From the sequence record MN850579.1: DNA of 64,000 bases; one strand, written 5' to 3'. The notes under the pieces were generated by a model that was given only the letters and a program-made list of their open reading frames with translations, did no database searches and was not told the origin of the DNA. Origin of the DNA: Escherichia phage mogra. Both the position numbers and the translations under genes were made by a program. Shown here in pieces: positions 13,622-64,000 of the stretch. Every line of letters begins with the position of its first letter. Positions within the stretch are counted from its first letter, which is position 1.

Positions 13622-14152
13622 ATGAAAACTGTAATTGAAACAACCGAGTTGTTTGGCGATTTATGTATCGAAAAACGTGGTTATGCTTACGTTCTGACAC
13701 AAGAAGATGATGCTGTTACTATTCTTCCTATGGAACTGGACAAGATTTTGAAACTCAATCCGCCCGGCCATGCATCTGTAATTAACATTGATGAAGACCT
13801 TCAAGTTCGTTTTTATCACGGTCTTTATAGTGGGGTTAATATCGAAACAGAAGATGAATGCCTTTCTATCAATAATTGGAAAACATTCGTCTCTAAGGTG
13901 AAAGAATTCATAGAATCTGAAACTGCCAAAAAGGCCAAACTTCAATGGGCTAAATGCCGTAATGCTTTTATTACAAATCAGGACCGCCCTGACTATACAA
14001 CAGTCCTAGGCGTTAATCCTTCTTATGAAGACGGTGATGTCGTAGTTATTCGCCAAACTGATGACCTTCGTCAACATATCATTACATTAGACAAAGATGA
14101 AGCAGTTGCTCTTAAAGCTTATCTCGATTCTATTATCCCAACTTTGAAATAA
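13622..14152 (+). CDS. hypothetical protein
   Basis: TAATATG-coupled ATG 13622; 176 aa. Confidence 0.6.
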   Translation: MKTVIETTELFGDLCIEKRGYAYVLTQEDDAVTILPMELDKILKLNPPGHASVINIDEDLQVRFYHGLYSGVNIETEDECLSINNWKTFVSKVKEFIESETAKKAKLQWAKCRNAFITNQDRPDYTTVLGVNPSYEDGDVVVIRQTDDLRQHIITLDKDEAVALKAYLDSIIPTLK

Positions 14153-14161
14153 GGAATTATT

Positions 14162-14635
14162 ATGATTATCAATGAAAACTCTTGGCACTTTAAAATTTAT
14201 GCCGCGTTCAATAGTACATGGAATCGCCCGAAAACGTTGTGTGCTTATTTTTGGAAAACGTTAATCCCGGTATTGGCTGTTTCAATTATTGGATTTGCGA
14301 TTTTAGCAGCAGTCACAATCATTGGCCAGGAAATTTTAACTAAATTCTTTGTTTTTAGCAGTCTATGGACATTAGTTCCGGCCTCAATTGGTGTAGGCAT
14401 TTTAATTGTAGCAGTCATGGCTTTTATTGCTACAGGGTTAGTAATTGGTCCGTCTTGGCTGTTAGACAAATATAACGACAGAAAATATTATAAAGAAATT
14501 GAGCTCATTGCGCAAAACCAAGAACGAATTAAAAATGGACTTGAGCCTATTGAACGTAAGAAATCATTAATAGGCGAATACCTTAAAGCTCGTAAAGAAA
14601 AAGTCTGTCCTACTCTTGAATATAAGGCTAAATGA
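14162..14635 (+). CDS. membrane protein
   Basis: Three hydrophobic helices; 157 aa. Confidence 0.6.
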   Translation: MIINENSWHFKIYAAFNSTWNRPKTLCAYFWKTLIPVLAVSIIGFAILAAVTIIGQEILTKFFVFSSLWTLVPASIGVGILIVAVMAFIATGLVIGPSWLLDKYNDRKYYKEIELIAQNQERIKNGLEPIERKKSLIGEYLKARKEKVCPTLEYKAK

Positions 14636-15621
14636 TGAAAACAATTATGAAAGGCTACTTTGGTAGCCACCTTTATGGAACGTCTACTCCTGAATCTGAC
14701 GTCGATTTTAAAGAAATTTATGTCCCTCATGCTCGTGATATCTTGACCGGTAACGTTAAAGAACACATGAGCAAGAACACGAATAACACATCTTCTAAGA
14801 ACACAAAAGACGACGTGGACCATGAGTTGTATAGTCTCAAATATTTCTTTAAACTAGCTGCGGATGGTGAAACTGTCGCATTAGATATGCTTCACACTCC
14901 ACAAAGTCTAGTAGTTAAATCTGATTTGCCTGATGTATGGAAGTATATTCAAGATAACAGGTCTCGTTTCTATACCACTAACATGAAATCTTATTTAGGG
15001 TATGTCCGTAAGCAAGCTTCTAAATACGGTGTCAAGGGTTCTCGACTGGCTGTTCTTCGTCAAGCCCTTAAACGTTCTAATGAATGGGGACAATACTTTG
15101 ATAATGGCGCAGTAATTCGTTTATCACATATGAAGAATGTTCTGCCTGTAGGTGAATTTGCTTCGTGGGTTGAAACTGAAAACGAGAAAACAGGTAAGCA
15201 AACATTCTATAATCTGTTGGACCGTAAATTCCAAGACACATTAACCAATAAAGAGTTCAATGCCATCCTGGTTAAACTAGAAGAGAACTATGGCGAACGT
15301 GCTCGTAAGGCAGAAGCTAACGAAGGTATTGACTGGAAAGCATTGAGTCATGCATGTCGTGGTGGACTTCAATTATTGGAAATTTACAAAACCGGCGACC
15401 TGGTTTACCCACTTCAGGATGCTCCATTTATTCTCGATGTTAAGCTTGGTAAACATACGTTTAAAACTGTACAAGAATTCCTAGAAGATATTGTTGACCA
15501 AGTTGAACAAGCATCAGAAAAAGCCGCTAAGAACGGTATGCAACAAAAAGTAGATATGAGTTTCTGGGACGACTTCCTTGAACAAGTCTATCTCGAAAAT
15601 CATAATTCTTACTATAAATAA
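14632..15621 (+). CDS. nucleotidyltransferase-fold protein (Pol-beta superfamily-like)
   Basis: N-terminal GS...D-x-D signature (YFGSHLYGTSTPESDVDF); 329 aa. Confidence 0.5.
   Translation: MMKTIMKGYFGSHLYGTSTPESDVDFKEIYVPHARDILTGNVKEHMSKNTNNTSSKNTKDDVDHELYSLKYFFKLAADGETVALDMLHTPQSLVVKSDLPDVWKYIQDNRSRFYTTNMKSYLGYVRKQASKYGVKGSRLAVLRQALKRSNEWGQYFDNGAVIRLSHMKNVLPVGEFASWVETENEKTGKQTFYNLLDRKFQDTLTNKEFNAILVKLEENYGERARKAEANEGIDWKALSHACRGGLQLLEIYKTGDLVYPLQDAPFILDVKLGKHTFKTVQEFLEDIVDQVEQASEKAAKNGMQQKVDMSFWDDFLEQVYLENHNSYYK
15613..15620 (+). promoter_or_regulatory. late-promoter-like box TATAAATA
   Basis: Exact TATAAATA about 33 nt upstream of ATG 15653. Confidence 0.4.
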
Positions 15622-15652
15622 ATAGATAAATAACCATTAACTTGAGGTAAAT

Positions 15653-15934
15653 ATGAAAAAATTAGTAATTGGTTTATTCGCAGTAATGATGGCATTCTCT
15701 GTTGGTGCTACCACAGGTGCAACCGGCGGTAGTGCAGGAGCTGGTGGTAACCAGTCTTCTGGGCCTTCCAATGGTTCGGTAAATGCATCACATTCTCAGG
15801 GTATTGAGAATATCAGATCAAGCTATATTAATAGCACGGCCGGACAAGCAACTGAAGCATGGTCAAAGGGCCGAGTAGTTACTCGCTCCGTATTCTGTGA
15901 TATGCCTAATTATGTTGCTAAGTGCGATAAGTAA
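15653..15934 (+). CDS. secreted Gly/Ser-rich small protein
   Basis: Signal peptide MKKLVIGLFAVMMAFSVGA; Gly/Ser-rich mature region; 93 aa. Confidence 0.55.
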   Translation: MKKLVIGLFAVMMAFSVGATTGATGGSAGAGGNQSSGPSNGSVNASHSQGIENIRSSYINSTAGQATEAWSKGRVVTRSVFCDMPNYVAKCDK

Positions 15935-15938
15935 ATGT

Positions 15939-15958
15939 GGGGACCTTCGGGTCCCTTT
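15939..15958 (+). terminator. intrinsic terminator
   Basis: GGGGACC-TTCG-GGTCCC hairpin followed by TTT. Confidence 0.6.
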
Positions 15959-16052
15959 AGGGGGTTAAAATATTTTTAAAAAGTAGTGTACATGCTTTTA
16001 GGATATGTTATTATAGACCTATCGAAACGAAATGAGTAAATTGGAGAATAAA

Positions 16053-17033
16053 ATGTTCAACGTTCAAATCAAAAAAGGTATCTATCGTAATAACGAAATC
16101 TCTGGTTCTTATGTTGCCACAAAGACCTGGTTCCCGGCAAAGCTTAATCCTGAATGTTCCCACTTAGGTGATGGTAAAATTTTCGTTATGATTGATGGTT
16201 CTGAACGTGGAGTATGGGTCTTCAAATCAGACATCGTAATGGAAGGAGTTGAGACGTCACCAGTTGCAGTTATTGAAAGCACTGAAGATATGAAAACTCG
16301 TATCAACAAACGCTTTAAAGTAATGAACATGATGACGAATGGCATTATCGATGGCAAAATTCGTTCACTCATTATTTCAGGTGCAGCTGGTATTGGTAAG
16401 ACGTATTCTCTGGATAAAGCACTTAATAATGCTAATGATAACGGTTTCATCAAATACAAAAGCATTAATGGTAAAATCTCCGGTATTGGCCTTTACGAAC
16501 AACTTTGGCTCAACCGTGATGCAGACAGCGTTCTCTTAATCGACGACGTTGACGTATTCTCAGATATGGACATCTTGAACCTTCTTAAAGCAGCATTAGA
16601 TACCGGCGATAAACGCAAAGTTTGTTGGAGCACTGCGTCATCTTATCTCGAGGATAAGGGTATTGATAAAGAATTTGAGTTTGAAGGTACTATCGTTTTC
16701 ATTACAAACGTTGATATCGATAAAGAGTTAGAACGGGGTTCGAAACTTGCTCCACACCTTCAAGCTTTAGTATCTCGTTCAGTGTATCTCGACCTTGGAG
16801 TACACTCTAATGAAGAGATTATGGTTCGAGTTGAAGATGTAATATTATCTACTGACATGATGCAGAAACGTGGCCTGACGGATGCAGAAACGTACAAAGC
16901 ATTGTCCTGGATGAAGGCTAATGTATCTCGTCTTCGCAATGTATCATTACGTACCGCTCTTTATGTAGCAGATTTTATTTCAACTGATAAAGATGGTTGG
17001 GAGGAAATCTCTGAAGTAACTTTACTGAAATAA
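16053..17033 (+). CDS. P-loop ATPase (AAA-like)
   Basis: Walker A ISGAAGIGKTYS; Walker B VLLIDDVD; ATG 16053 after GGAGAA. Confidence 0.6.
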   Translation: MFNVQIKKGIYRNNEISGSYVATKTWFPAKLNPECSHLGDGKIFVMIDGSERGVWVFKSDIVMEGVETSPVAVIESTEDMKTRINKRFKVMNMMTNGIIDGKIRSLIISGAAGIGKTYSLDKALNNANDNGFIKYKSINGKISGIGLYEQLWLNRDADSVLLIDDVDVFSDMDILNLLKAALDTGDKRKVCWSTASSYLEDKGIDKEFEFEGTIVFITNVDIDKELERGSKLAPHLQALVSRSVYLDLGVHSNEEIMVRVEDVILSTDMMQKRGLTDAETYKALSWMKANVSRLRNVSLRTALYVADFISTDKDGWEEISEVTLLK

Positions 17034-17170
17034 GCTTATAGGAAGTTCTGAGGTAACAAAAGCCATAAAGATGAATAATCATATGGCTTACCTCAAAGAA
17101 GGACACCAGGAACCTACTGAGGGCATAGAAATATTTAAAATAATGATGTACAAATCAAAGAGGATATGTT

Positions 17171-17458
17171 ATGGATTTTATGCAAAAAATTAAAGCCGCA
17201 GTCGAACTGTATGCTCATCGTATGGTTAGTTCTACGATGCAATATAGCGAGGAGGTTCGCCAGGACTCTTCCTTGAAAGGAAAAACTAAAGCCTTAATTA
17301 CCTTAGATCGTTTGCAAAAGAATGCCATAGAGATGCTCCAGTACGACAAGGGTGTATATAAGAAAGAACAGGAAGAGAAACTTAAATCTGAAAAATTACA
17401 AAAAATCCCGAAGTCTGTTTGGTTCAGTGGAAAAAATACCGAAAAAAGTTTCTTTTAG
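17171..17458 (+). CDS. hypothetical protein
   Basis: GAGGA RBS; 95 aa. Confidence 0.5.
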   Translation: MDFMQKIKAAVELYAHRMVSSTMQYSEEVRQDSSLKGKTKALITLDRLQKNAIEMLQYDKGVYKKEQEEKLKSEKLQKIPKSVWFSGKNTEKSFF

Positions 17459-17460
17459 TT

Positions 17461-17495
17461 GTTTACAAGGTCTATGGTTATGTTATTATAGACCT
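17461..17495 (+). promoter_or_regulatory. early-type promoter with inverted repeat bracketing the -10
   Basis: GTTTAC 17461-17466; arms AGGTCTAT 17468-17475 / ATAGACCT 17488-17495; TATTAT 17484-17489. Confidence 0.5.
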
Positions 17496-17516
17496 ATCAA
17501 CTACTGGAGGTAAAAC

Positions 17517-18044
17517 ATGAACGCTAAAGATATTTTCAACCTGGTAAATTATAACGACGGTAAATTTAAATCTGAAGCACAAAGTAAGTTCTTTAATGAC
17601 ATTGCTTATGGTAACGAGATTACCGTGGACGGAGGTCAGATTTTCAAATCTCGCTGGAATTGGATTGTTATCATCGATTCAGTTGGAATTGTGGAAGTCT
17701 ACAAAAACACTAACAAAAAACGTACATTATTCTGGTCTCGTGAAACTAACGAGAAGTACAAAAAGGATAAAGCATCTCGTTTATCCAAAGTAACCCAGGA
17801 AGATATCGAGTTTATCAAGAAAGATATCGAGATGTACGAAAATTTAATCGCTGAAGACCAGGCAGTACTCGATAAGTTTGATGAAATTAAAGCTTCTCTT
17901 GAAATCCCTGACTTCATGAAAGAAACAGTAAACGAACGATACGCTCTCACTTCAGAACGTATTGCAAACTATACAAAACAGAAAGCAGAACGTATTAGTA
18001 CTCTTCGGAAATTTGAAGAACGTTTAAAGACGGTTCACGCATAA
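17517..18044 (+). CDS. hypothetical protein
   Basis: GGAGG RBS; 175 aa. Confidence 0.55.
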   Translation: MNAKDIFNLVNYNDGKFKSEAQSKFFNDIAYGNEITVDGGQIFKSRWNWIVIIDSVGIVEVYKNTNKKRTLFWSRETNEKYKKDKASRLSKVTQEDIEFIKKDIEMYENLIAEDQAVLDKFDEIKASLEIPDFMKETVNERYALTSERIANYTKQKAERISTLRKFEERLKTVHA

Positions 18045-18106
18045 ACGCTTTACCCAAGGACGGGTTATAATGGTTTTGAGTTCCAATTCAATCTGAGGAA
18101 ATAGTT

Positions 18107-19102
18107 ATGAGCATTACATCTGATGCGGTAAAACATGAAATTAATGGTTTATGTGCTTCACAGATTAAAGTGTGGTTTAAAGACCATAACGATCGCAGAG
18201 CACTTAATTATGAGCAAATTGCTATCCAAGTTCATCAATTACTGGTTAGTAAATTTGATTTTCATATGCCGTCTGAAATCTATACTAATCTGCCGCGAGC
18301 ACTTATTAAAGCGTGTAAAGGTTATGGAAAATCAATGGCTGATGGAATCTTCAGCGCGCTGAATAAACTTAACGTTCTGTCGATGATTAACTCTAACAAC
18401 ATCCTGAGTAATCTAGGACGTACTGATTTGTTCGGACGTGAACAGTGTAAAATGCCTTTGAAATGGATTGTTGCTCATCTTAACGAGAACCAAACACGTT
18501 TTATGGCCGTAACAGCACGTTTACAAATGGGCCTAGATCGTCAGATGAACTTTAAAACTCATCCACGTTATTCAGGTTCAACTGACTTTTATAAATGTGA
18601 GCTTCAAAAGGTTGGTGGCAAAACTGTCTTAGTAGTTCGTGTAACGTTTGAAGGACGTCGTCAAGGATATTTTGACATAATCGGCTCTGGACTTAAACAT
18701 TGTGGATTTATCGACGAAGTTGATATCAAGCGAGACGGCATTGGATACCGTATTGGGTATGTTTGTACTCTTAAAGAAGAGATTTCAGGACCAGCTCCAG
18801 GACTAAAAGACGTTAGATATAAAGACGAGCTCGTTGAAGAAATAAAAGAAGTTGAATATGATATCAACCAAGAAGATGCTCTTAAAGACCTTATTGATGA
18901 ACTGAACCAAGACGTTATTCCGGTTCAGAAATTTGAATCAAAACATGCTGAGCAAATCAAATACTTTGAAGCTTTGATTAACGAACTTAATGTAACTATT
19001 CAACAGACTGACGATGAAATCTCACGATTAGCAGGCTTAAACGGTAAAAATAAAACAGAACGAGCTAATCTTATTCAAGTAGTAAAACTTCTTAAGGAAT
19101 GA
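18107..19102 (+). CDS. hypothetical protein with C-terminal coiled coil
   Basis: 331 aa; first of three similar-sized consecutive genes. Confidence 0.6.
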   Translation: MSITSDAVKHEINGLCASQIKVWFKDHNDRRALNYEQIAIQVHQLLVSKFDFHMPSEIYTNLPRALIKACKGYGKSMADGIFSALNKLNVLSMINSNNILSNLGRTDLFGREQCKMPLKWIVAHLNENQTRFMAVTARLQMGLDRQMNFKTHPRYSGSTDFYKCELQKVGGKTVLVVRVTFEGRRQGYFDIIGSGLKHCGFIDEVDIKRDGIGYRIGYVCTLKEEISGPAPGLKDVRYKDELVEEIKEVEYDINQEDALKDLIDELNQDVIPVQKFESKHAEQIKYFEALINELNVTIQQTDDEISRLAGLNGKNKTERANLIQVVKLLKE

Positions 19103-19131
19103 TGTACAACCAAGGATGGTTGGAGTATAAT
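19103..19131 (+). promoter_or_regulatory. promoter module TGTACA-ACCAAGGATGGTTGGAG-TATAAT
   Basis: Conserved 27-bp module also at 20098, 61105 and 61663; TATAAT 19126-19131. Confidence 0.55.
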
Positions 19132-19157
19132 AAATTTTTCAACATGAGGAATATAAA

Positions 19158-20093
19158 ATGGCTTTTATTACACGTAGAGAACTTATCAAAGAATTTACCT
19201 CGAACGCATATACTCCAGGACCTAATCCTATCCGTATGCCTGTAAAGACTCCTGAAGAGATTGAGGAAGTCTGTTCATATTATGGGATTACTTCTCGTAA
19301 GTTTACTCAATTTGAATGCGTTACTAACACACCCGTTAAAGAGTTCATTAAAAATGGTGAGTTCAGCCGTTTATTAGCCAAACAGAAACTTCGTAATTTT
19401 TGTATTGGTGGTGAAGGACAATATTTCGCTAAGCAGTTCCGGAATAACCTTAACAATCTGATGGCCATTGCTTCTCGTATTCGTCCTCAAGCAATTAACA
19501 TGAAACATTTGAAATATACTTACGATAAGTTAGAAATCATGGTTATCAGTGAGAATGAGTTCACTCTTACGTATAAACCTAAGAATGATAACGTTGCTCG
19601 TGTATTCCACCAAGCGTTGGAAGTTTTAGGTGATAATATCCACCAGATTAAAGCAATTTATTCTCGTGAGCTTAATATTATCGACCCTATCAAGAATAAG
19701 GGCCATATCGCTATCCAGGCTCGTGTATCTATTGGTAAAAAGGTTCCTGCGCCATGGTGGCACAAAGACTCTGAATACTATCAAAATCTTAAAAAGGAAA
19801 ATGCAACGTTCGAAGCGTCAATTACTGCAACCCCAATTGGCCATGCTGAAGTTCTAGGTGCATATTCTACTGCTCCATCTATACACATTTCACCGTCGAC
19901 TAAACTGGAAATCTCTAACGGTCTTCTTCCTGCCGAAGATTACCATTATAATCAAATCAAGGCCACTGTAGACCAACTATCCGTTGAACTTGACAAAGCA
20001 CAAGCTAAGCTTCGTGATGCTCAACAAGTAGTTACCAAGCTCCAGTTGCAGTACTCTAAACTTTTTAACGCAATGAATGCATTAAAATCATAA
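19158..20093 (+). CDS. hypothetical protein with C-terminal coiled coil
   Basis: 311 aa. Confidence 0.6.
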   Translation: MAFITRRELIKEFTSNAYTPGPNPIRMPVKTPEEIEEVCSYYGITSRKFTQFECVTNTPVKEFIKNGEFSRLLAKQKLRNFCIGGEGQYFAKQFRNNLNNLMAIASRIRPQAINMKHLKYTYDKLEIMVISENEFTLTYKPKNDNVARVFHQALEVLGDNIHQIKAIYSRELNIIDPIKNKGHIAIQARVSIGKKVPAPWWHKDSEYYQNLKKENATFEASITATPIGHAEVLGAYSTAPSIHISPSTKLEISNGLLPAEDYHYNQIKATVDQLSVELDKAQAKLRDAQQVVTKLQLQYSKLFNAMNALKS

Positions 20094-20097
20094 ATCA

Positions 20098-20127
20098 GTT
20101 TACAACCAAGGATGGTTGGAGTATAAT
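20098..20127 (+). promoter_or_regulatory. promoter module GTTTAC-AACCAAGGATGGTTGGAG-TATAAT
   Basis: GTTTAC 20098-20103; TATAAT 20122-20127; spacer identical to the 19103 copy. Confidence 0.55.
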
Positions 20128-20157
20128 GAGAACCTATCTTAACGAGAGGAAAATATT

Positions 20158-21108
20158 ATGACACGTTCACATTACATTGAATACTTTGCCGGTCTTATCG
20201 CTAACGTTCATGCCCAACGTGCTTCTGGTTCATTAGGATTTGATGTTCCACACCGAGATGTAGTAAGTGGTATTCTTCGCGATTTTGGTACATACACAGG
20301 CCAAGAAAATCATATCTGTAAAGATACTCAAAATGCATATTCTCATTCACTAGGGACGCTGCTTCAATGGTTCAAACGTTCTCGTTTATTATCTTCTACT
20401 GTAGCTCGCGATAACATTAAAAACTTTATGAAACCGAGCTTTATTAAATCTGTGACATCTAAAACCGATTTGGTTGAATTCACTATTGTTAATGATGTTA
20501 AAAAGACTCATTTGGCTGATTGGTTATCTACCATTCCTGAAACTAAATTTGCTGATAAATTTGCTTGTGAATTCAATAAACAAGTGAATATGCTTTTTAA
20601 ACATTCTCGTAAATTATTCACTGGCGGTGATGGCCGTACAAATAAAGTTCATGTTAAAGATTGGGTTACTGCAGTATTCAAACCAACTGGTAATGGTAAC
20701 GCATCATTATCAATTGATATCCAGGTTCCTTATTACTACTCACGTAATCTCGGCACCATGAAAGCCGAAGAAATTAATAAGCACAACAAAACTATTCGTT
20801 CGTTGTCTTATAAACTTATTACATTGTTAGAGACTATGGATGTTGTTGAAACGTTCGACGAATCCGAAGATAACGGTTCAATGTTATATAGTTCTCGTAC
20901 CCGAATTAAGTTGAAGAACCCTAACGAGTATAAACTTAAGACTATTAAAGAACCTAAAGTAGAAAAAGTTGACAACTTGAGCGAAGAACGTGAGTACCTC
21001 AAATCTCGTCTGAAAGAAGTCGAAGCCCAGATTGCAGAACAAACTAAATCGTTAAAAGCTCTGAATGCGAAAGCGGATGGTTTACGAAATGCCATTGAGG
21101 TGTTATAA
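20158..21108 (+). CDS. hypothetical protein with C-terminal coiled coil
   Basis: 316 aa. Confidence 0.6.
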   Translation: MTRSHYIEYFAGLIANVHAQRASGSLGFDVPHRDVVSGILRDFGTYTGQENHICKDTQNAYSHSLGTLLQWFKRSRLLSSTVARDNIKNFMKPSFIKSVTSKTDLVEFTIVNDVKKTHLADWLSTIPETKFADKFACEFNKQVNMLFKHSRKLFTGGDGRTNKVHVKDWVTAVFKPTGNGNASLSIDIQVPYYYSRNLGTMKAEEINKHNKTIRSLSYKLITLLETMDVVETFDESEDNGSMLYSSRTRIKLKNPNEYKLKTIKEPKVEKVDNLSEEREYLKSRLKEVEAQIAEQTKSLKALNAKADGLRNAIEVL

Positions 21109-21413
21109 TGAAACTACGTCTTTTAGAGGATATTGATATGAGCACTAATCATGGCTTGGTTAAGTTTATTGATGATAGTTCAAAGATTGAATTTGTTCAG
21201 CGAGATAAAATCCACGGTGAAGAAAAGTTCGTTCCTCCGGCATGGAACGAAATAATGAAAATGGTTGAACGACGTGAAAATGCTGCCAAATCGGCAGCAA
21301 AACATCCATGTCCGGAATGTGGAACTATCCAAGTCCAACTGGTTAACTGGGCCAGTGATAACTTGAAATTGAAATGCCGTAAATGCTTCCACAAATTTGA
21401 GAGAACATTATAA
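21108..21413 (+). CDS. zinc-ribbon protein
   Basis: CPECG...CRKC pair at C-terminus; 101 aa. Confidence 0.5.
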   Translation: MKLRLLEDIDMSTNHGLVKFIDDSSKIEFVQRDKIHGEEKFVPPAWNEIMKMVERRENAAKSAAKHPCPECGTIQVQLVNWASDNLKLKCRKCFHKFERTL

Positions 21414-21820
21414 TGAGATATAGCCTTCGTTGTTTTATCGCAGCTTTAGTTTTTGCTATTATTCCATTCATTTGGAACAGCCAGAATACTTACATGGAAA
21501 CTAAAGTAATTCCTGTGGAGGTAGTGGAATTAATCTCAGGCCAATCTACAGGAAAATATTCTAAATTAGAATTTATTGCAGTCTATAAAGATGAGCAAGG
21601 ACGAGTTTTTGACAGGCGTGTATCACCTTCGTTTTATACGCTTCTGAATAAAGGTGATACGATAGCTATAGAAATTCGTGAGATGGATATCAAACAAACT
21701 ACTAAAGATAACTTGATTTGGTTCTTTGGTACAGTGTTGTTGGTTTCTATCTGTATCACAGGTTTTATTACATGTATTGTATTTGGCATTGCATATTTAA
21801 TCGATGAAAGGAAAAAATAA
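21413..21820 (+). CDS. membrane protein
   Basis: N- and C-terminal hydrophobic helices; 135 aa. Confidence 0.55.
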   Translation: MRYSLRCFIAALVFAIIPFIWNSQNTYMETKVIPVEVVELISGQSTGKYSKLEFIAVYKDEQGRVFDRRVSPSFYTLLNKGDTIAIEIREMDIKQTTKDNLIWFFGTVLLVSICITGFITCIVFGIAYLIDERKK

Positions 21821-22083
21821 TGTTTAAAGTGTACGGGTATGACTCTACTATTCATAAATGCATTTATTGTGATAATGCGAAACGATTGCTGACTGTTAAG
21901 AAACAGCCGTTCGAATTCATTAATGTTATGCCAGAAAAAGGTGTATTCGATGAAGAAAAAATTGCTGAGCTTCTGGCTAAGCTTGGACGTGAAACACATG
22001 TTGGATTGACGATGCCTCAGGTGTTTGCTCCTGATGGAACTTCGATCGGTGGCTTTGATCAACTGCGAGAATATTTTAAATGA
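21820..22083 (+). CDS. nrdC: thioredoxin/glutaredoxin NrdC
   Basis: MFKVYGYDSTIHKCIYCDNAKRLL... with CxxC; 87 aa; near-identical to recalled T4 NrdC. Confidence 0.9.
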   Translation: MFKVYGYDSTIHKCIYCDNAKRLLTVKKQPFEFINVMPEKGVFDEEKIAELLAKLGRETHVGLTMPQVFAPDGTSIGGFDQLREYFK

Positions 22084-22436
22084 CATATTCATTAAATCTT
22101 AAAGATTTCCAAGATGTATACGAAGTTTGTGCCAATGAACTTGGTCCTGATGCTCCAACTATTATTGAAGTTTTAAATGTGCTCCCTTCATCATTAGCTT
22201 ACGAAGCCAAATCATGGGGTTGGAACGACACTGTCGTTCGTGATGACCTTTACGTCCTGATGAACGATATGATGGTTAAAAAGGCAGAACCGGTTGCACC
22301 AATGGTTACCATTACCGTTGAAGAATATAATCGCCTGCAAGCCATTGAAGAGCTTCTGTGGAACATTGAATGTGACCTGCCGTCAGGGCTAGAATCCTGG
22401 ATTGATTATGAAGAGCTCAATAAACTCCGGGGTTAA
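22080..22436 (+). CDS. hypothetical acidic protein
   Basis: ATGA overlap with nrdC; 118 aa. Confidence 0.55.
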   Translation: MTYSLNLKDFQDVYEVCANELGPDAPTIIEVLNVLPSSLAYEAKSWGWNDTVVRDDLYVLMNDMMVKKAEPVAPMVTITVEEYNRLQAIEELLWNIECDLPSGLESWIDYEELNKLRG

Positions 22437-22564
22437 GCCATGGTATTCGGCTCGATGGGAAACTGTCGAGCCAGACGTCGAAACAGTTTACAACGACGAA
22501 GAAACGTGTTATGATGAACCTACAGTAAACGATATGATTGATTTGGAAATGGGAAGAGATTATT

Positions 22565-22735
22565 ATGCAAGTTAAATTATTGTACCGTTTATTAAAAAAT
22601 GGCAAGCATGATTGGTATTTGCTTATTAAAACCGATCCGAATTTTTTCTCCGGACGACCATTTACGGTTCGACCAACTAAACGTCAGCTTCGCAAAGCGA
22701 AACGCACGCATCGCAACTTTTATAGAGGATATTGA
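22565..22735 (+). CDS. small basic protein
   Basis: ATG 22565 after GGGAAGAGA; 56 aa; track start is TTG upstream. Confidence 0.4.
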   Translation: MQVKLLYRLLKNGKHDWYLLIKTDPNFFSGRPFTVRPTKRQLRKAKRTHRNFYRGY

Positions 22736-22736
22736 T

Positions 22737-23162
22737 ATGAATATTTCTGACACACATGGTAAATGGTTCAAGATTGTTAAAGAAGATGAAGAACTACAAG
22801 TCAAGTTTCCTGAATTAAAGAAAGATACAATCATCAAGGTAATTGGTACTACGACCGAAGATGGTTATGGCGACCATGGCATTATTGAAGTGATGTTGAA
22901 CACTGGTGAGAAACTTTGCATCTATGACCGTGATACTTCTCTTTGGTGCTTCTGGGAATCACATTCAATAGATGAACTCGAAGAAATTGATTCGGCTGAT
23001 ATTGCGGGTGTGCTAGGTAGTAAACTTGGCGAATTCGAAGGTGAACGAATTTCTTATGCATTAGCTAAATTAGCCGGACAAGAAAATAACGACGGCTATG
23101 AAGGTAACCTGATGCAAGCAGCCGCAGAATACATTGAATATTTAGAAAGACGTTTAAGTTAA
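22737..23162 (+). CDS. hypothetical acidic protein
   Basis: ATG 22737 after AGAGGA; track N-terminal extension is in a region better read as the previous small gene. Confidence 0.55.
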   Translation: MNISDTHGKWFKIVKEDEELQVKFPELKKDTIIKVIGTTTEDGYGDHGIIEVMLNTGEKLCIYDRDTSLWCFWESHSIDELEEIDSADIAGVLGSKLGEFEGERISYALAKLAGQENNDGYEGNLMQAAAEYIEYLERRLS

Positions 23163-28116: not shown

Positions 28117-28185
28117 CGATTTACAAACTCTTGAGAGCAGAGTATAATGCTCTCATTGGATAATAAAATAACCGAGGAAAATAAT

Positions 28186-59102: not shown

Positions 59103-60412
59103 CATTTGATGATTTGACTGACGGCCAGAAAAACGCCTTCAACGTTGTTATGAAAGCTATTAAAGAAAAGAAACATCACGTAACTATTAATGGGCCTGCT
59201 GGTACAGGTAAAACAACCCTTACTAGATTTATTGTTGAAGCTCTTATTTCTGCCGGAGAATCAGGTATTATTTTAGCAGCCCCTACACATGCTGCTAAAA
59301 AGGTTCTAAGCAAACTTGCGGGTCAAGAAGCATCGACTATTCATAGCATTCTTAAAATCAACCCAACTACATACGAAGAAAACGTATTGTTTGAACAGAA
59401 AAAGGTTCCAGACTTAGCCTTGTGCCGTGTACTGTTATTTGATGAAGCGTCAATGTGCGACCGTTCTCTGTTTAAAATAATGTTAGCTAGTATCCCTAAA
59501 TGGTGTACAGTAATTGGAATTGGTGACCGATGTCAGATTCGACCGGTAGACCCAGGCGAATCAACTGCGTATCTAAGTCCTTTCTTCACTCACAAAGACT
59601 TCGTGCAATGCAACCTTACAGAAGTTAAACGTAGCAATGCACCAATTATTGATGTTGCGACTGATATTCGTAATGGCAAATGGATTTACGATAAAGTAGT
59701 TGATGGACACGGTGTTCACGGATATACAGACCTTAAATCGTATATGATGAACTATTTTAACGTCGTTAAAACTCCTGAAGACCTTTTCGAAAATCGAATG
59801 ATGGCATTCACAAATAAGTCTGTGGACAAGTTAAATTCAATTATTCGACGAAAACTTCTTGAAACAGAAAAACCATTTATTAAAGACGAAGTCATTGTTC
59901 TACAAGAGCCATTTACTAAGACATATAAGTTAGATGGTAAAAATATGACCGAAATGCTTTTCAATAACGGGCAATTCGTTCGTATTCGAGATGCTGTAGA
60001 AACGTCTACATTCGTTAAAGCACGTGGTGTTTCAGGCGAATATATGATACGATACTGGAATCTTACAGTAGAAACATATGGGGATGATGAAGAATACATC
60101 CGCGAAGATATAAAGGTTATTTCTTCCGAAGAAGAGCTTTATAAATTCAATTTGTTTTTGGCTAAGACCGCAGAAACATACAAATTTTGGAATAAAGGTG
60201 GTAAAGCTCCATGGAGCGAATTCTGGGATGCTAAACGTATGTTCACTAAGGTGAAGGCACTACCAGTATCAACCTTCCATAAGGCCCAGGGTATGTCTGT
60301 TGACACGGCCTTTGTTTATACACCGTGTATCCATTATGCCGATTCAGAATTAGCTAAACAGTTATTGTATGTCGGCACAACTCGTGGTCGGTTTGACGTC
60401 CATTTTATTTGA
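59099..60412 (+). CDS. dda: SF1 DNA helicase Dda
   Basis: Walker A NGPAGTGKTT; Walker B LLFDEASM; 437 aa. Confidence 0.92.
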   Translation: MTFDDLTDGQKNAFNVVMKAIKEKKHHVTINGPAGTGKTTLTRFIVEALISAGESGIILAAPTHAAKKVLSKLAGQEASTIHSILKINPTTYEENVLFEQKKVPDLALCRVLLFDEASMCDRSLFKIMLASIPKWCTVIGIGDRCQIRPVDPGESTAYLSPFFTHKDFVQCNLTEVKRSNAPIIDVATDIRNGKWIYDKVVDGHGVHGYTDLKSYMMNYFNVVKTPEDLFENRMMAFTNKSVDKLNSIIRRKLLETEKPFIKDEVIVLQEPFTKTYKLDGKNMTEMLFNNGQFVRIRDAVETSTFVKARGVSGEYMIRYWNLTVETYGDDEEYIREDIKVISSEEELYKFNLFLAKTAETYKFWNKGGKAPWSEFWDAKRMFTKVKALPVSTFHKAQGMSVDTAFVYTPCIHYADSELAKQLLYVGTTRGRFDVHFI

Positions 60413-60421
60413 GAGAAAATT

Positions 60422-61099
60422 ATGAGCACTGATGTTATTATAGATTTTGAAACATTCGGCAATACATCAAAAGCGGCTGTTATTGACCTTGCGGTTATTG
60501 CATATAATTCCGACCCTGAAGTTGTTGAATCATTTGAAGAACTTGTTCAACGAGGTAAGCGAATTAAATTTAATTTAGCTTCTCAGAAAGGGAAGCGAGT
60601 TTTCGCTAAATCCACTATGAAATGGTGGAAAGAACAATCGGCTGAAGCGCGTAAAAACTTGGCTCCGTCTGAAGACGATGTCACTACGCTTGAAGGCATT
60701 AAAATCTTTTTAGATTATTGTCGAGCTAATAAAGTTGACCAATGGAAATCGCAAATGTGGTGCCGTGGTATGAGCTTTGACTTCCCAATATTGGTTGATT
60801 TGATTCGTGACCTCTATCGTGATGAAGGTGTTCTTGAACCAGATATTGATACTGATAAATTAGAACCGGTTAAATTCTGGGCTCAACGCGATATTCGTAC
60901 GGCAATCGAAGCTTACTCGTTGACACGAGGATTAAGTATGTGTCCATTACCGATGGGTACGCTAAAAGGATTCGTTGCCCATGATAGTATTCATGATTGT
61001 GCTAAAGATATTTTGATGTTAAAATATGCTCAGCGTTATGCGCTTGGCCTTGAAGATGTCCCTGAGAATCCTGACCCGTTAAGTGTAAAACAGCGATAA
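60422..61099 (+). CDS. dexA: exonuclease A (DEDD 3'-5' exonuclease)
   Basis: Exo I motif VIIDFETFG; 225 aa immediately after dda as in T4. Confidence 0.8.
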   Translation: MSTDVIIDFETFGNTSKAAVIDLAVIAYNSDPEVVESFEELVQRGKRIKFNLASQKGKRVFAKSTMKWWKEQSAEARKNLAPSEDDVTTLEGIKIFLDYCRANKVDQWKSQMWCRGMSFDFPILVDLIRDLYRDEGVLEPDIDTDKLEPVKFWAQRDIRTAIEAYSLTRGLSMCPLPMGTLKGFVAHDSIHDCAKDILMLKYAQRYALGLEDVPENPDPLSVKQR

Positions 61100-61104
61100 A
61101 ATCA

Positions 61105-61134
61105 GTTTACAACCAAGGACGGCTGGAGTATAAT
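61105..61134 (+). promoter_or_regulatory. promoter module GTTTAC-AACCAAGGACGGCTGGAG-TATAAT
   Basis: Variant (2 mismatches) of the 19103/20098/61663 module; TATAAT 61129-61134. Confidence 0.5.
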
Positions 61135-61164
61135 CTTTCTATCTTAACCAAACAGGAAAACATT

Positions 61165-61659
61165 ATGAATATCAATACTACGGCTACTTACATCCTGAAA
61201 GACGAAAAACAAATCAACTGGTACGGTGCTTCAGTGCGAGCTTATGAAAAGTTTTGTGAAATTTTAGGTGCCACTCAAGGTAATAGTTTTACTATTGTTA
61301 ACTTCATCAAACAAGCTGAAGGCCCTTGGTTATTCTTAGAAATTAAAAATTCATATGGTACAATTTCTACTACCGCCCTTCCAAGCACCGACTTTGAACT
61401 GTTGATTGAAGAAGTAGAACCCGTTAAAGACATCTGTATTGATATGGATATCGCTTGTATGTACGGTACTCTGATTAAGCCTATTGAGCCTACTGATTTG
61501 TTGTGTAAAGCTGTTTCAATTCGACGTCCGTTCGCAGGACCAGTGAGTGGATGGGTAACTGATCAATGGATTGAAAATGGTGTTGAACTTCTGAACGTAG
61601 TTCATGCAGGTGATTTTAGTGTAGTTCCACGTAGTGCTGTGGTTAATATTCTAAATTAA
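61165..61659 (+). CDS. hypothetical protein, DQW(I/V)E(D/N)G family member 1
   Basis: 164 aa; C-terminal ...GWVTDQWIENGVELLNVVHAGDFSVVP shared with next two genes. Confidence 0.55.
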   Translation: MNINTTATYILKDEKQINWYGASVRAYEKFCEILGATQGNSFTIVNFIKQAEGPWLFLEIKNSYGTISTTALPSTDFELLIEEVEPVKDICIDMDIACMYGTLIKPIEPTDLLCKAVSIRRPFAGPVSGWVTDQWIENGVELLNVVHAGDFSVVPRSAVVNILN

Positions 61660-61662
61660 TGT

Positions 61663-61691
61663 TGTACAACCAAGGATGGTTGGAGTATAAT
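61663..61691 (+). promoter_or_regulatory. promoter module TGTACA-ACCAAGGATGGTTGGAG-TATAAT
   Basis: Identical spacer to the 19103 and 20098 copies; TATAAT 61686-61691. Confidence 0.55.
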
Positions 61692-61721
61692 GAATTCAAC
61701 TTAAACAAAGAGAGAAAAATT

Positions 61722-62177
61722 ATGATTACTATTGGTGAAATTAAGCGTGTATCAACTGCATCCCGTTCTAAAGCCGCAGGTCGTCTGGTTGAAGTTGTCG
61801 GACTTCGCACAAATGGCATGGGACGTATTAAAGAAGTTAAAGTTCGAATCATTCCTAGTTTTGGACGTCAGGATACTCAGTACGCTTACGTAAGTCCTAA
61901 ATTCTTGGAAACTCATGTGAGCGCTCATTTTGCTTCTACTGAACCTAATGTACAGTTCAAATGGGCTCTTTGTAAAGGTGTTGAATTCCAGACTGATAAA
62001 GAATTTGACTTCATCGATGAATACGGTTATCCAAGCAAAACTGATACTATGTGTGGCTTCATTAGTGACCAATGGGTTGAAGATGGTGAAAAGTTATACA
62101 ATATCGTATTCTTAGGTGACTTCCGAGTTGTTAAAGAATCTGAAATCACTCGCTATGTGTCTCCTCGTAAAGCTTAA
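61722..62177 (+). CDS. hypothetical protein, DQW(I/V)E(D/N)G family member 2
   Basis: ATG 61722; track start 61659 lies within the promoter module; ...GFISDQWVEDGEKLYNIVFLGDFRVV. Confidence 0.55.
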   Translation: MITIGEIKRVSTASRSKAAGRLVEVVGLRTNGMGRIKEVKVRIIPSFGRQDTQYAYVSPKFLETHVSAHFASTEPNVQFKWALCKGVEFQTDKEFDFIDEYGYPSKTDTMCGFISDQWVEDGEKLYNIVFLGDFRVVKESEITRYVSPRKA

Positions 62178-62186
62178 GGAATTATT

Positions 62187-62606
62187 ATGAATATTGCAAA
62201 TCTCTCTATTGGTGATTATGTACACGTATCGGATGCTTCTCGCTCTAAAGTTGCCGGGAAGTTGGTTGAAGTTCTTTCTGTGAGTGATCCGGTTTTTGGA
62301 CGTAACGAAGTTAAAGTTCGTGACGCAGATGGTAACATTGGTTACGTTAAAAGCCAATTCATTGAGCCAGAAGAACGTGCGTTCAAATGGAAACTGTGCA
62401 GGTCTGTTTTAGTTGTAAAAGACCACAAATTTACTATTGCTGCTGCAACTGACGGGTCTCCATGGAAAACGAATCAAGTTGCTGGCTTTATTTCGGACCA
62501 ATGGGTAGAAGATGGTGTTAAGCTTTATAACATCGTTTTCGCTGGACAGTTCATGGTAGTTCCTGAGTTCCAAATCAAAAAATATTGTCCAGCATCTTTT
62601 GCATAA
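62187..62606 (+). CDS. hypothetical protein, DQW(I/V)E(D/N)G family member 3
   Basis: 139 aa; ...GFISDQWVEDGVKLYNIVFAGQFMVVP. Confidence 0.55.
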   Translation: MNIANLSIGDYVHVSDASRSKVAGKLVEVLSVSDPVFGRNEVKVRDADGNIGYVKSQFIEPEERAFKWKLCRSVLVVKDHKFTIAAATDGSPWKTNQVAGFISDQWVEDGVKLYNIVFAGQFMVVPEFQIKKYCPASFA

Positions 62607-62610
62607 AGTT

Positions 62611-62661
62611 GTTTACTTCTCCTCCGGTTTTGATATTATAACCATATCAACCAGAGGAGAA
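62611..62661 (+). promoter_or_regulatory. early-type promoter embedded in an inverted repeat that can sequester the SD
   Basis: GTTTAC 62611-62616; arm TTCTCCTCCGGTT 62617-62629; TATTAT 62634-62639; complement AACCAGAGGAGAA 62649-62661 (one mismatch). Confidence 0.55.
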
Positions 62662-62665
62662 TAAT

Positions 62666-63190
62666 ATGTTAGTTTATCGCGTAGAACGTAGTTTTTGTAC
62701 TCAACGTGAATCATTACCAGGAATTGCTATCGAAGATGGTAAAGCCGTCAGAATTTGGGAAACCTCTTGGAATAAAGAACCTCGCTCGCCATACGGTTGG
62801 TCGGGCACCGACAACTCTGAAGAAACATGGGAGTTCCTTGATAAGCATGGAATACTCTCAGGTAACTTCTACCATCACGGCGACAACTATAATGTCCCTA
62901 ATCGTCCTACAGTAAATGAAGACAAACTCCTTGAACAAAATATCTTAAGATACCATAGAATTGAGCACACATTTGAATTGAGTGAAGATTGGGCTCAAGG
63001 GTTCTATTTTGGATTTGAAAGTGTTGACGCGGTTTATGCATGGTTTGATGACCAGGTGGATGTTGAACTCTTGAAAGCTAAAGGATACTACATCGCGGTC
63101 TATGAAGCACCTGATTTCATCCTCGGAAGTTGTCAATTAATGTTCAGACGTTCATTGGCAGAACAAGTTGATTTTATTTTGCTAAAATGA
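62666..63190 (+). CDS. hypothetical protein
   Basis: 174 aa. Confidence 0.55.
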   Translation: MLVYRVERSFCTQRESLPGIAIEDGKAVRIWETSWNKEPRSPYGWSGTDNSEETWEFLDKHGILSGNFYHHGDNYNVPNRPTVNEDKLLEQNILRYHRIEHTFELSEDWAQGFYFGFESVDAVYAWFDDQVDVELLKAKGYYIAVYEAPDFILGSCQLMFRRSLAEQVDFILLK

Positions 63191-63247
63191 TGTACAACAA
63201 CTGTGGTCTATGATACTATAGACCTATCAAAACAAGAGGAGAATATT

Positions 63248-63475
63248 ATGAAACGTCAAATCATTAAAAACGTAACTACTGATTCAAACATCGATGAGTT
63301 TGAAGATGTTCTGTTTAATCCTGATTTAGTTGTTGTACAGAAAAACTGGACCGAATTTTTATGCTACACCGAAGTGGTTTACGTTTACGAAAAACTCGGT
63401 GACGAAATGCCTATCTATGGTATCTTCCGTGAAATCACTGAAAACGGTACAACTTATTGGAAGGAAACTTACTAA
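63248..63475 (+). CDS. hypothetical protein
   Basis: ATG 63248 after AGAGGAG; 75 aa; track start 63203 is inside the promoter. Confidence 0.5.
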
Positions 63476-63888
63476 TGGCTAATAAATTTGAAGTTAATAA
63501 ATGGTATCAGTTCATAGATAAACGTGCCCAAGAAGAGTTTATTAAAGACCACACTGATAATGGGATTTATGCACGACGTCTTGGCATGGAACCATTTAAA
63601 GTATTAGATGTTGACCATCTTGGTCGTCCTACTAAAATTGTGACATCTACTGGCATGGTTGGATACGCAACAGGCGGTGATATCCTTGATGAAAACTTTA
63701 TCTGGCTCTCCACGAATGAAGCAGAGTTCTTTGACGAAGTTGGAAATCTGTATCAAGCGTCAGAAGAGCAAGATTCTGGTGAACTTGATGAATTGTCTGA
63801 ATTTCCTGTGATGACGATTACTATCAAAAATAATGACCAGGCATGGTCTTTGTATCAAATGTTGAAAGCTCACTTTAAGGAACAATAA
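63475..63888 (+). CDS. hypothetical acidic protein
   Basis: ATG 63475 overlaps upstream stop (TAATG); 137 aa. Confidence 0.55.
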
Positions 63889-64000
63889 TGCCGTTATACG
63901 ACTATAAATGTCAATATGAAGATTGTGGTCATGAATATGAAAAAATTAAAAGGATTTCTGAACGAGAAAACGATGTTTGCCCTGAATGTCATCGTCTGTC
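63888..64000 (+). CDS. zinc-ribbon protein, N-terminal part (3' end outside window)
   Basis: [18 protein letters not shown]...CPECHRL: CxxC...CxxC ribbon; TAATG-coupled. Confidence 0.5.
   Translation, partial: MPLYDYKCQYEDCGHEYEKIKRISERENDVCPECHRL

Follow-up and report, generated by a model that had tools for sequence, protein, structure and literature searches.

The window analysed here is the whole stretch of 64,000 nucleotides from Escherichia phage mogra (MN850579.1), which has a G+C content of ~37% and carries nearly all of its genes on the + strand. Two of its regions, 17500–21500 and 59500–64000, are 96–98% identical to Mosigvirus genomes (pEB20, APCEc01, AV110 and ATK47), and by this comparison the source phage is a Mosigvirus, i.e., an RB69-like relative of T4. 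Both belong to the classic early, non-essential portions of T4-type genomes. The first is the nrdC.x block, with the gene order nrdC.8, nrdC.6-like, nrdC.5-like, nrdC.3-like, nrdC.2 ... nrdC, and the second contains dda, dexA, four MotB-like genes, cef and goF in this order. The promoter-like sites of interest (A–E) and the genes that they precede are:

Site E, 18046–18071, + strand: CGCTTTA (18046–18052), a 13-nt spacer and TATAAT (18066–18071), upstream of gene 18107
Gene 18107: nrdC.6-like, downstream of site E, no Pfam match
Site A, 19103–19131, + strand: −35 TGTACA (19103–19108), hairpin CAACCA-AGGA-TGGTTG (19107–19122), −10 TATAAT (19126–19131)
Gene 19158, 19158–20093, + strand: 311 aa, DUF7235, nrdC.5-like, between sites A and B
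Site B, 20098–20127, + strand: GTTTACA (20098–20104), hairpin (20103–20118), TATAAT (20122–20127)
Gene 20158, 20158–21108, + strand: 316 aa, nrdC.3-like, downstream of site B, no Pfam match
Site C, 61105–61134, + strand: variant cassette before gene 61165, with a −35 and −10 of the same form and two stem changes (GGACGGCTGG)
Gene 61165, 61165–61659, + strand: 164 aa, MotB-family C-terminal domain, between sites C and D
Site D, 61663–61691, + strand: TGTACA (61663–61668), hairpin (61667–61682), TATAAT (61686–61691), before gene 61722
Gene 61722, 61722–62177, + strand: 151 aa, MotB (PF17613, E = 3e-37), downstream of site D

The downstream genes had initially been assigned to two paralog groups, one of which stands: genes 61165 and 61722, grouped on a DQWVEDG motif, belong to the MotB family (PF17613) and are, together with gene 62187, true paralogs according to Pfam and BLASTP. 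The other group, a pair of 'coiled-coil' paralogs at 19158 and 20158, is not supported by sequence similarity; BLASTP returned no match between these two genes, the other pairwise matches among the nrdC.x genes have E > 0.1, and identity in a multiple alignment of the nrdC.x genes is 11–22%. Genes 18107, 19158 and 20158 share no similarity with one another that is detectable by BLASTP, though the modules at sites A and B are identical.

The annotation of these genes varies among relatives. Many records label all nrdC.x genes as 'thioredoxin' (window 14632–22083; L001 and L128 in our comparison set), apparently by propagation from the gene names; T4 and RB69 annotate only the 87-aa nrdC as thioredoxin. 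The nrdC.5-like gene is 936 nt long in the window (19158–20093) and 960 nt in ATK47-type relatives (L001 3159–4118), an in-frame difference of 24 nt. Within its nrdC.6-like gene, the ATK47 record also carries an 11-bp 'direct repeat sequence1, possible binding site of StbAB' (L001 2756–2766, corresponding to about 18755 in the window), an annotation of the plasmid-partition type that is odd for a lytic phage. The RB69 orthologue of gene 61165 (L009 3377–3873, minus strand) is split by a frameshift into a 132-aa 'motB.1' and a 29-aa ORF, and is either a pseudogene or the product of a sequencing error in the reference.

The sequence TACAACCAAGGATGGTTGGAGTATAAT is identical at 19105, 20101 and 61665, and the 26-mer ACAACCAAGGATGGTTGGAGTATAAT has exact copies at 19106, 20102 and 61666, in all cases on the + strand, with 0.00 chance matches expected from dinucleotide shuffles; a copy with two mismatches, GGACGGCTGG, is found at 61109. 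This is in agreement with the initial annotation, which placed an identical module at 19103, 20098 and 61663 and a two-mismatch variant at 61105, these coordinates being the first base of the −35 region in each case. The three exact copies have a run of 27 bp in common (TACAACC...TATAAT), and longer pairwise runs of 29 bp are shared by sites A and D and by sites B and D; the flanks of A and D are similar as well. The −35 element of site A abuts the stop codon TGA (19100–19102) of the upstream gene. At site C, the hairpin is broken by the two stem changes in this genome, and relatives have the canonical sequence at this position. Across ~150 Mosigvirus records the module is nearly invariant, and relatives carry 2–4 copies per genome, all within the nrdC.x and motB regions. 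In IMG/VR, exact matches to the full module came from two sources only, and a looser scan with CCAAGGAYGG-N0-8-TATAAT returned mostly chance matches in unrelated viruses, with only ~8 T4-like loci.

Sites A–D share the form (T/G)T(T/G)TACA-N17-TATAAT. Their −35 and −10 hexamers match sigma-70 at 11 of 12 positions for B and C (GTTTACA) and at 10 of 12 for A and D, where the −35 (TGTACA) is poorer (4/6). The upstream sequences are A/T-rich (aaaatcataaatcag, gataaaatcag and ctaaattaatg), the 3′ end of the spacer is GT-rich (TGGTTGGAG), the distance from the −10 to the ATG is 26–30 nt at all four sites, including an SD, and the downstream genes are early-gene orthologues in the correct orientation (nrdC.5-like, nrdC.3-like and MotB-family). 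In early promoters of T4 and RB69, the consensus has GTTTAC from −36 to −31, A-rich sequence between −40 and −44, a GT-rich stretch ahead of −12, and TATAAT (PMC1524935, PMC2988021), and conservation in T4 early promoters extends beyond the −35 and −10. Sites A–D resemble these promoters in their hexamers and the spacing between them, in the A-rich tract upstream and the GT-rich end of the spacer, and in their place before early-gene orthologues; they differ in that the published consensus does not demand this particular spacer, that the sites here are without a TGn extended −10, and that the −35 of A and D departs from the consensus (ATGTAC). In RB69, three of the sites carry the exact module and the fourth a variant, and Nolan et al. 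2006 list all four orthologous sites among the predicted early promoters (A, Pe:52042; B, Pe:51019; C, Pe:8947; D, Pe:8387; PMC1524935), with low HMM scores for the counterparts of A and D (18.2 and 6.2, respectively; PMC1524935). We infer, on good grounds, that sites A–D are early promoters, and their activity is predicted.

A mini-ORF within the module (ATG GTT GGA GTA TAA) was considered and dropped, because the SD-like AGGA overlaps its ATG and because the ATG is missing in C variants. The motB-like ORF is started at ATG 61659 in the ORF list and in some relatives (moskry_31), and then reads through the promoter module; ATG 61722 is preferred, since it has an SD and gives the length of RB69 motB (151 aa). 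The same over-extension is seen for cef in Klebsiella phage Mineola, with an annotated start at 1499 versus ATG 1560 (L131). Elsewhere in the nrdC.x block, a putative internal promoter at 21081–21109 (+), TTTACG-N17-TATAAT with TG before the −10, overlaps a stop/start junction, and the ATG of ORF 21108–21413 sits within its TATAATG.

Site E belongs to a different promoter class. A 'shortened relative' of the module had been placed at 18048, and a site does exist there; its sequence is CTTTACCCAAGGACGGGTTATAAT, which has only the CCAAGGACGG core in common with the module, and rather than a truncated copy it appears to be the orthologue of T4 PnrdC.7, with a MotA box. The possibility of a decayed early promoter was rejected, as any −35 would leave too short a spacer and the MotA box fits. 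MotA-dependent middle promoters have the consensus (a/t)(a/t)(a/t)TGCTTtA, a spacing of 11–13 bp, TAtaAT and no −35 (PMC2988021), and site E, with aaaCGCTTTA-N13-TATAAT (18043–18071) and likewise no −35, conforms to it. The site carries an AGGA-loop hairpin, ACCC-AAGGAC-GGGT (18052–18065). In T4, the junction after nrdC.8 carries CGCTTTA-N12-TATAAT with an 8-bp AGGA-loop hairpin, and the mapped start of the middle promoter PnrdC.7, 53325 (PMC2988021, table 1), is seven nt past the last base of this TATAAT (eight positions downstream). Site E is best read as a middle promoter with the shared hairpin, orthologous to T4 PnrdC.7, with which it has in common the homologous junction after nrdC.8, the CGCTTTA box, the 12–13 nt spacing, the TATAAT and the AGGA-loop hairpin; experimental mapping applies to the T4 site only, and the downstream gene is nrdC.7 in T4 and nrdC.6-like here. 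The site corresponds to the 'PmSL' class of Comeau 2014 (PMC4122927), and its orthologue is missing from Nolan's list of RB69 middle promoters (PMC1524935).

The spacer hairpin of the module, CAACCA-AGGA-TGGTTG, has a 6-bp stem, a 4-nt loop and a fold energy of −6.9 kcal/mol, which is unexceptional compared with shuffled sequences (z about −1). At homologous or related junctions, the stem varies in a compensated manner: CATCCA/TGGATG (in moskry and IMG/VR contigs at site D, and also before an nrdC.4-like gene in Dhakavirus-like contigs), CTTCCA/TGGAGG, which includes one G-T pair, AGCCA/TGGCT before T4 nrdC.3, CCACA/TGTGG before T4 nrdC.4, ACCC/GGGT at site E, and TTATACCA/TGGTATAA at T4 PnrdC.7. 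Over 12 distinct variants, 87.5% of the cells are paired versus 62.9% in shuffles, a covariation inflated somewhat by one or more variants that came from a stem-requiring scan, although covariation is already evident among those read earlier at homologous junctions. The copies are also related to one another. Double changes are present in four of the six stem pairs, the observed covariation score was reached by none of 500 shuffles, and registers slid by 1–3 columns are only 18–42% paired. Pairing is that of the sense strand, where G-U is tolerated and A-C is not. The spacer had been described as a quasi-palindrome (CCAA...TTGG). An inverted repeat is indeed present; however, the CCAA...TTGG register, with the loop GGATGG, breaks in the CATCCA/TGGATG variant, while the register supported by covariation, CAACCA/TGGTTG with the loop AGGA, holds throughout the variants. 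Stem covariation could also arise in DNA, by templated quasi-palindrome mutation rather than by selection.

A terminator scan of 14000–23000 called none at sites A, B and E. The combination of a G+C-rich stem and a U-run that marks intrinsic terminators is absent, the tail after the hairpin at sites A–D being GAGUAUAAU. Without a U-tract or a scan call, and at −6.9 kcal/mol with a z of about −1, a terminator function of the hairpin is doubtful; the 'terminator' half of the definition of promoter-early stem-loops (PeSLs), to which we return below, is likewise unsupported by sequence, because the hairpin is weak and lacks a U-tract.

The offset of the hairpin from the −35 and −10 varies between sites, it accompanies early promoters and one middle promoter, and it is found in Tequatrovirus, Mosigvirus, Dhakavirus-like contigs, Jiaodavirus and Winklervirus. 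As a tentative possibility, the AGGA-loop hairpin may be a functional element in its own right, carried along with early and MotA-dependent middle promoters across Tevenvirinae genera, and acting either on read-through RNA, for example as a structured entry site for RegB/S1 or another RNase or as an attenuator that insulates each cassette, or on single-stranded DNA as a recombination hotspot. If so, the cassette would combine 'promoter + insulator + recombination handle' in one self-contained unit, which is more than a repeated promoter.

Somewhat more doubtful is the proposition that the conserved core functions mainly in read-through RNA, for example as a site for the RegB/S1 endoribonuclease or for other processing or attenuation, with a promoter that merely overlaps it. 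According to a review of RegB, the enzyme cuts GGAG/U in early-gene intergenic regions, strong sites fit GGAGRAYARAA, and RegB alone cleaves sites with an unpaired GGA and a constrained fourth base. In the hairpin, the GGA is unpaired in the loop (A-GGA-U, with the U in the closing pair), the stem is followed by GGAGUAUAAU, and GGAGUAUAAU(A/G) partly fits the strong-site consensus; the covariation on the sense strand, with G-U allowed and A-C not, and the varying offsets at early and middle promoters also point in this direction. However, the module is a candidate RegB site by resemblance only, T4 PnrdC.4 and site E are without GGAG, and the same review states that secondary structure generally protects against RegB. 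Furthermore, a role in RNA would complement rather than exclude one in promotion and recombination.

Evidence for recombination at the module comes from relatives that lack the gene between two copies. AV110 and F2 are without gene 19158–20093, and their junction, read base by base, consists of the upstream flank of A, the module and the downstream flank of B. AV114 is without gene 61165–61659, and its junction, read in the same manner, runs from the end of dexA through the upstream flank of C, the module and the downstream flank of D into motB. At both loci, a single chimeric module remains at the deletion junction. Among ~150 Mosigvirus records, the A–B fusion junction was matched in ~20 and the C–D fusion junction in ~17, counting full-length matches of ≥95% identity. 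Both genes are present in this window, RB69 and pEB20; only 19158 is missing in AV110, only 61165 in PNJ-9 and JK45, and both in AV114 and AV118. A comparison of relatives for gene presence or absence bounded by the module had been suggested as a check, and its outcome is positive at both loci.

The A–B junction exists as two haplotypes, TATAATgaatctatc and TATAATctttctatc (gaatctatc and ctttctatc), each of which matches a haplotype found at site B in genomes that retain the gene, pointing to more than one event or to subsequent exchange. The pattern of presence and absence could reflect one old deletion per locus that has been reassorted by ordinary recombination, and not recurrent events. 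Deletion is the likelier direction, because both genes have T4 or RB69 counterparts.

Identity between copies reaches into the 5′UTR and the 3′ ends of the upstream genes, and in RB69 the sites B and C, ~42 kb apart, share an exact run of 48 bp that includes 12 nt of the 5′UTR. The stem of site D is of the A/B type in the window and CATCCA/TGGATG in most relatives, which is most simply explained by a short conversion tract in the window. Copies at the motB locus are confined to Mosigvirus, and Dhakavirus genomes have one copy at ~45 kb, by position in the nrdC region. In T4, the early promoter at the junction homologous to site D has an unrelated spacer, and no promoter was found at the one homologous to site A. 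In Klebsiella phage Mineola, cef is preceded by a sister cassette of the T4 PnrdC.4 type (GTTTAC-tttg-CCACA-AGGA-TGTGG-TA...) whose leader is also similar, and in Erwinia phage Virsaitis27 a close variant of this type precedes sp (spackle).

These data make it unlikely that sites A–D are ordinary early promoters whose identity is due to purifying selection on one optimal promoter sequence, with indels that coincide with them by chance. T4 early promoters are known to be conserved beyond the −35 and −10, and the near-invariance of the module in ~150 Mosigvirus records would be compatible with such selection. However, the window's other T4-type promoter-like sites on the + strand (156, 6107, 21104, 25581 and 28143) have spacers unrelated to that of the module, so that its identity amounts to more than the early-promoter consensus; moreover, the deletion junctions at two loci fall exactly within the module, identity extends into the 5′UTR and the 3′ ends of upstream genes, and homologous T4 junctions have a different spacer or no promoter.

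Equally hard to sustain, and slightly less probable, is the idea that the copies are leftovers of a tandem gene-plus-promoter duplication in each paralog array, with no movement between loci. It would accord with the fact that both loci are arrays of similar-sized genes, with the true paralogy of the MotB-family genes 61165, 61722 and 62187, and with the presence of hairpin-promoters before T4 nrdC.3, nrdC.4 and nrdC.7, but genes 18107, 19158 and 20158 share no detectable similarity and the same module recurs 42 kb away before MotB-family genes. Nor is it easily reconciled with a motB-locus module that is found only in Mosigvirus, a single copy in Dhakavirus and a different spacer at T4 PmotB, or with the sister cassettes before cef and sp in other genera. 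Finally, an operator for a dimeric phage or host DNA-binding regulator of this early-promoter subset is highly improbable: the inverted repeat has the classic operator position between the −35 and −10 and is limited to a few promoters, but its arms vary with complementarity kept (AACC/GGTT, ATCC/GGAT, TTCC/GGAG, AGCC/GGCT and CCAC/GTGG), which is the signature of a folded single strand and not of base-specific half-site recognition, its 4-bp centre AGGA is asymmetric, and conserved symmetric half-sites were not found.

The reading that we favor, with a probability of about 0.8, is that sites A–D are PeSL-type host sigma-70 ('early') promoter cassettes that double as short direct repeats for recombination. 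Each site would drive a single early gene, small and non-essential, within the hyperplastic nrdC.x or motB region, and the copies would be near-identical by virtue of recombination or gene conversion from one another, not through a need of the promoter for the spacer. Direct repeats of 27–48 bp would let the phage recombination/replication machinery delete the gene between two copies, and the deleted gene could in principle re-insert as a circle. One chimeric promoter would remain after deletion, and because of it the next gene would stay expressed. We infer transcription starts at the sites, a role for the hairpin and the type of event, which may be homologous recombination, replication slippage or mini-circle excision/integration. 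The initial annotation had proposed a portable promoter module that marks recombination-driven gene gain and loss; the base-resolved junctions at two loci and the RB69 promoter predictions lend support to this proposal, the idea of which has already been published for PeSLs.

Promoter–hairpin combinations of other types were also observed. A second cassette type is located at 28120–28155 (+) in the window, TTTACA-AACTCTTG-GAGAGC-AGAGTATAAT-GCTCTC, where the hairpin overlaps the −10; it precedes a 110-aa gene (ATG 28186) upstream of gene 55. T4 PmotB (L127) has this second cassette sequence with the stem GGGACC...GGTCCC, i.e., with two compensated pairs, and a downstream gene different from that in the window. 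The IMG/VR contigs L033 (~87−, 5079+ and 5660+), L076 (1149+ and 6977+) and L097 (2227+) contain TTGACA-N17-TATAAT with stem-(A/G/C)GGA-stem hairpins that end at the −10 (for example, AGCCCA-AGGA-TGGGCT, GTGCA-GGGA-TGCAC and TCGCCA-AGGA-TGGCGA); these are probably further PeSL families. The leaders in L033 resemble that of site C in the window (ctttc..aac.aaacaggaa.aaca.tATG), and this contig may derive from a distant T4 relative.

Taken as a whole, sites A–D provide an unusually clean natural example of the gain and loss of accessory early genes by T4-like phages with the neighbours undisturbed, covering two loci, ~150 sequenced relatives, all four presence/absence states and base-resolved junctions. 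They extend the PeSL idea to the RB69 group, and they show that a single cassette family, marked by the covarying AGGA-loop hairpin, precedes eight or more different genes across five genera and is common to an early and a middle promoter class. In practical terms, the analysis points to annotation errors that recur, namely ORFs that run on through the promoter and nrdC.x genes labelled as 'thioredoxin', and it yields a prediction as to the accessory genes that are unstable in Mosigvirus stocks for therapy.

PeSLs are repeated early promoters with a stem-loop in the hyperplastic regions of RB49/phi1, T4/PST and KVP40/nt-1, where they flank indels between close relatives and form mini-circles; placement of the stem-loop between the −35 and −10 is one of the two most common arrangements (PMC2839356, PMC4122927). 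Full or degraded PeSLs are located near 47–51 kb of PST/T4, which by position is the nrdC.x region (PMC4122927). The following sequence hallmarks of PeSLs are found here: a sigma-70-type early promoter, an A/T-rich upstream region, a stem-loop between the −35 and −10, a 3′ SD with a start codon, location in hyperplastic regions before small non-essential genes, repetition within the genome, and indels with junctions in the element that leave one chimeric copy. There are also differences. In RB49 PeSLs, TTGACA-ggggatcggtgatcccc-TATAAT, the hairpin fills the spacer and has the 7-bp stem GGGGATC/GATCCCC, whereas the stem here is short, A/T-containing and of −6.9 kcal/mol; the module is without a U-tract, which makes terminator activity doubtful, and its loop is a conserved AGGA. 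The published stems of PST/T4 PeSLs are of the AGNA...TCNT type and lie just upstream of the promoter, unlike the module here. The role proposed for the PeSL hairpin is attenuation of upstream transcription (PMC2839356, PMC4122927), for which the present sequences offer little support. No description of the Mosigvirus copies or of the natural deletion variants was found in Arbiol 2010 (PMC2839356) or Comeau 2014 (PMC4122927); the PeSL concept is already published, and judged by its sequence the module is a new case of a PeSL in the RB69 group, not a new kind of element.

In T4, deletion between short direct repeats is served by homologies of < 50 bp, according to Singer 1982 and Mosig 1998 as cited in PMC2839356. 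The clean deletions between direct repeats of 27–48 bp, 557 and 996 bp apart, are of the same type, with the difference that the repeat here is itself a regulatory unit, and for this reason the deletion product would keep a working promoter.
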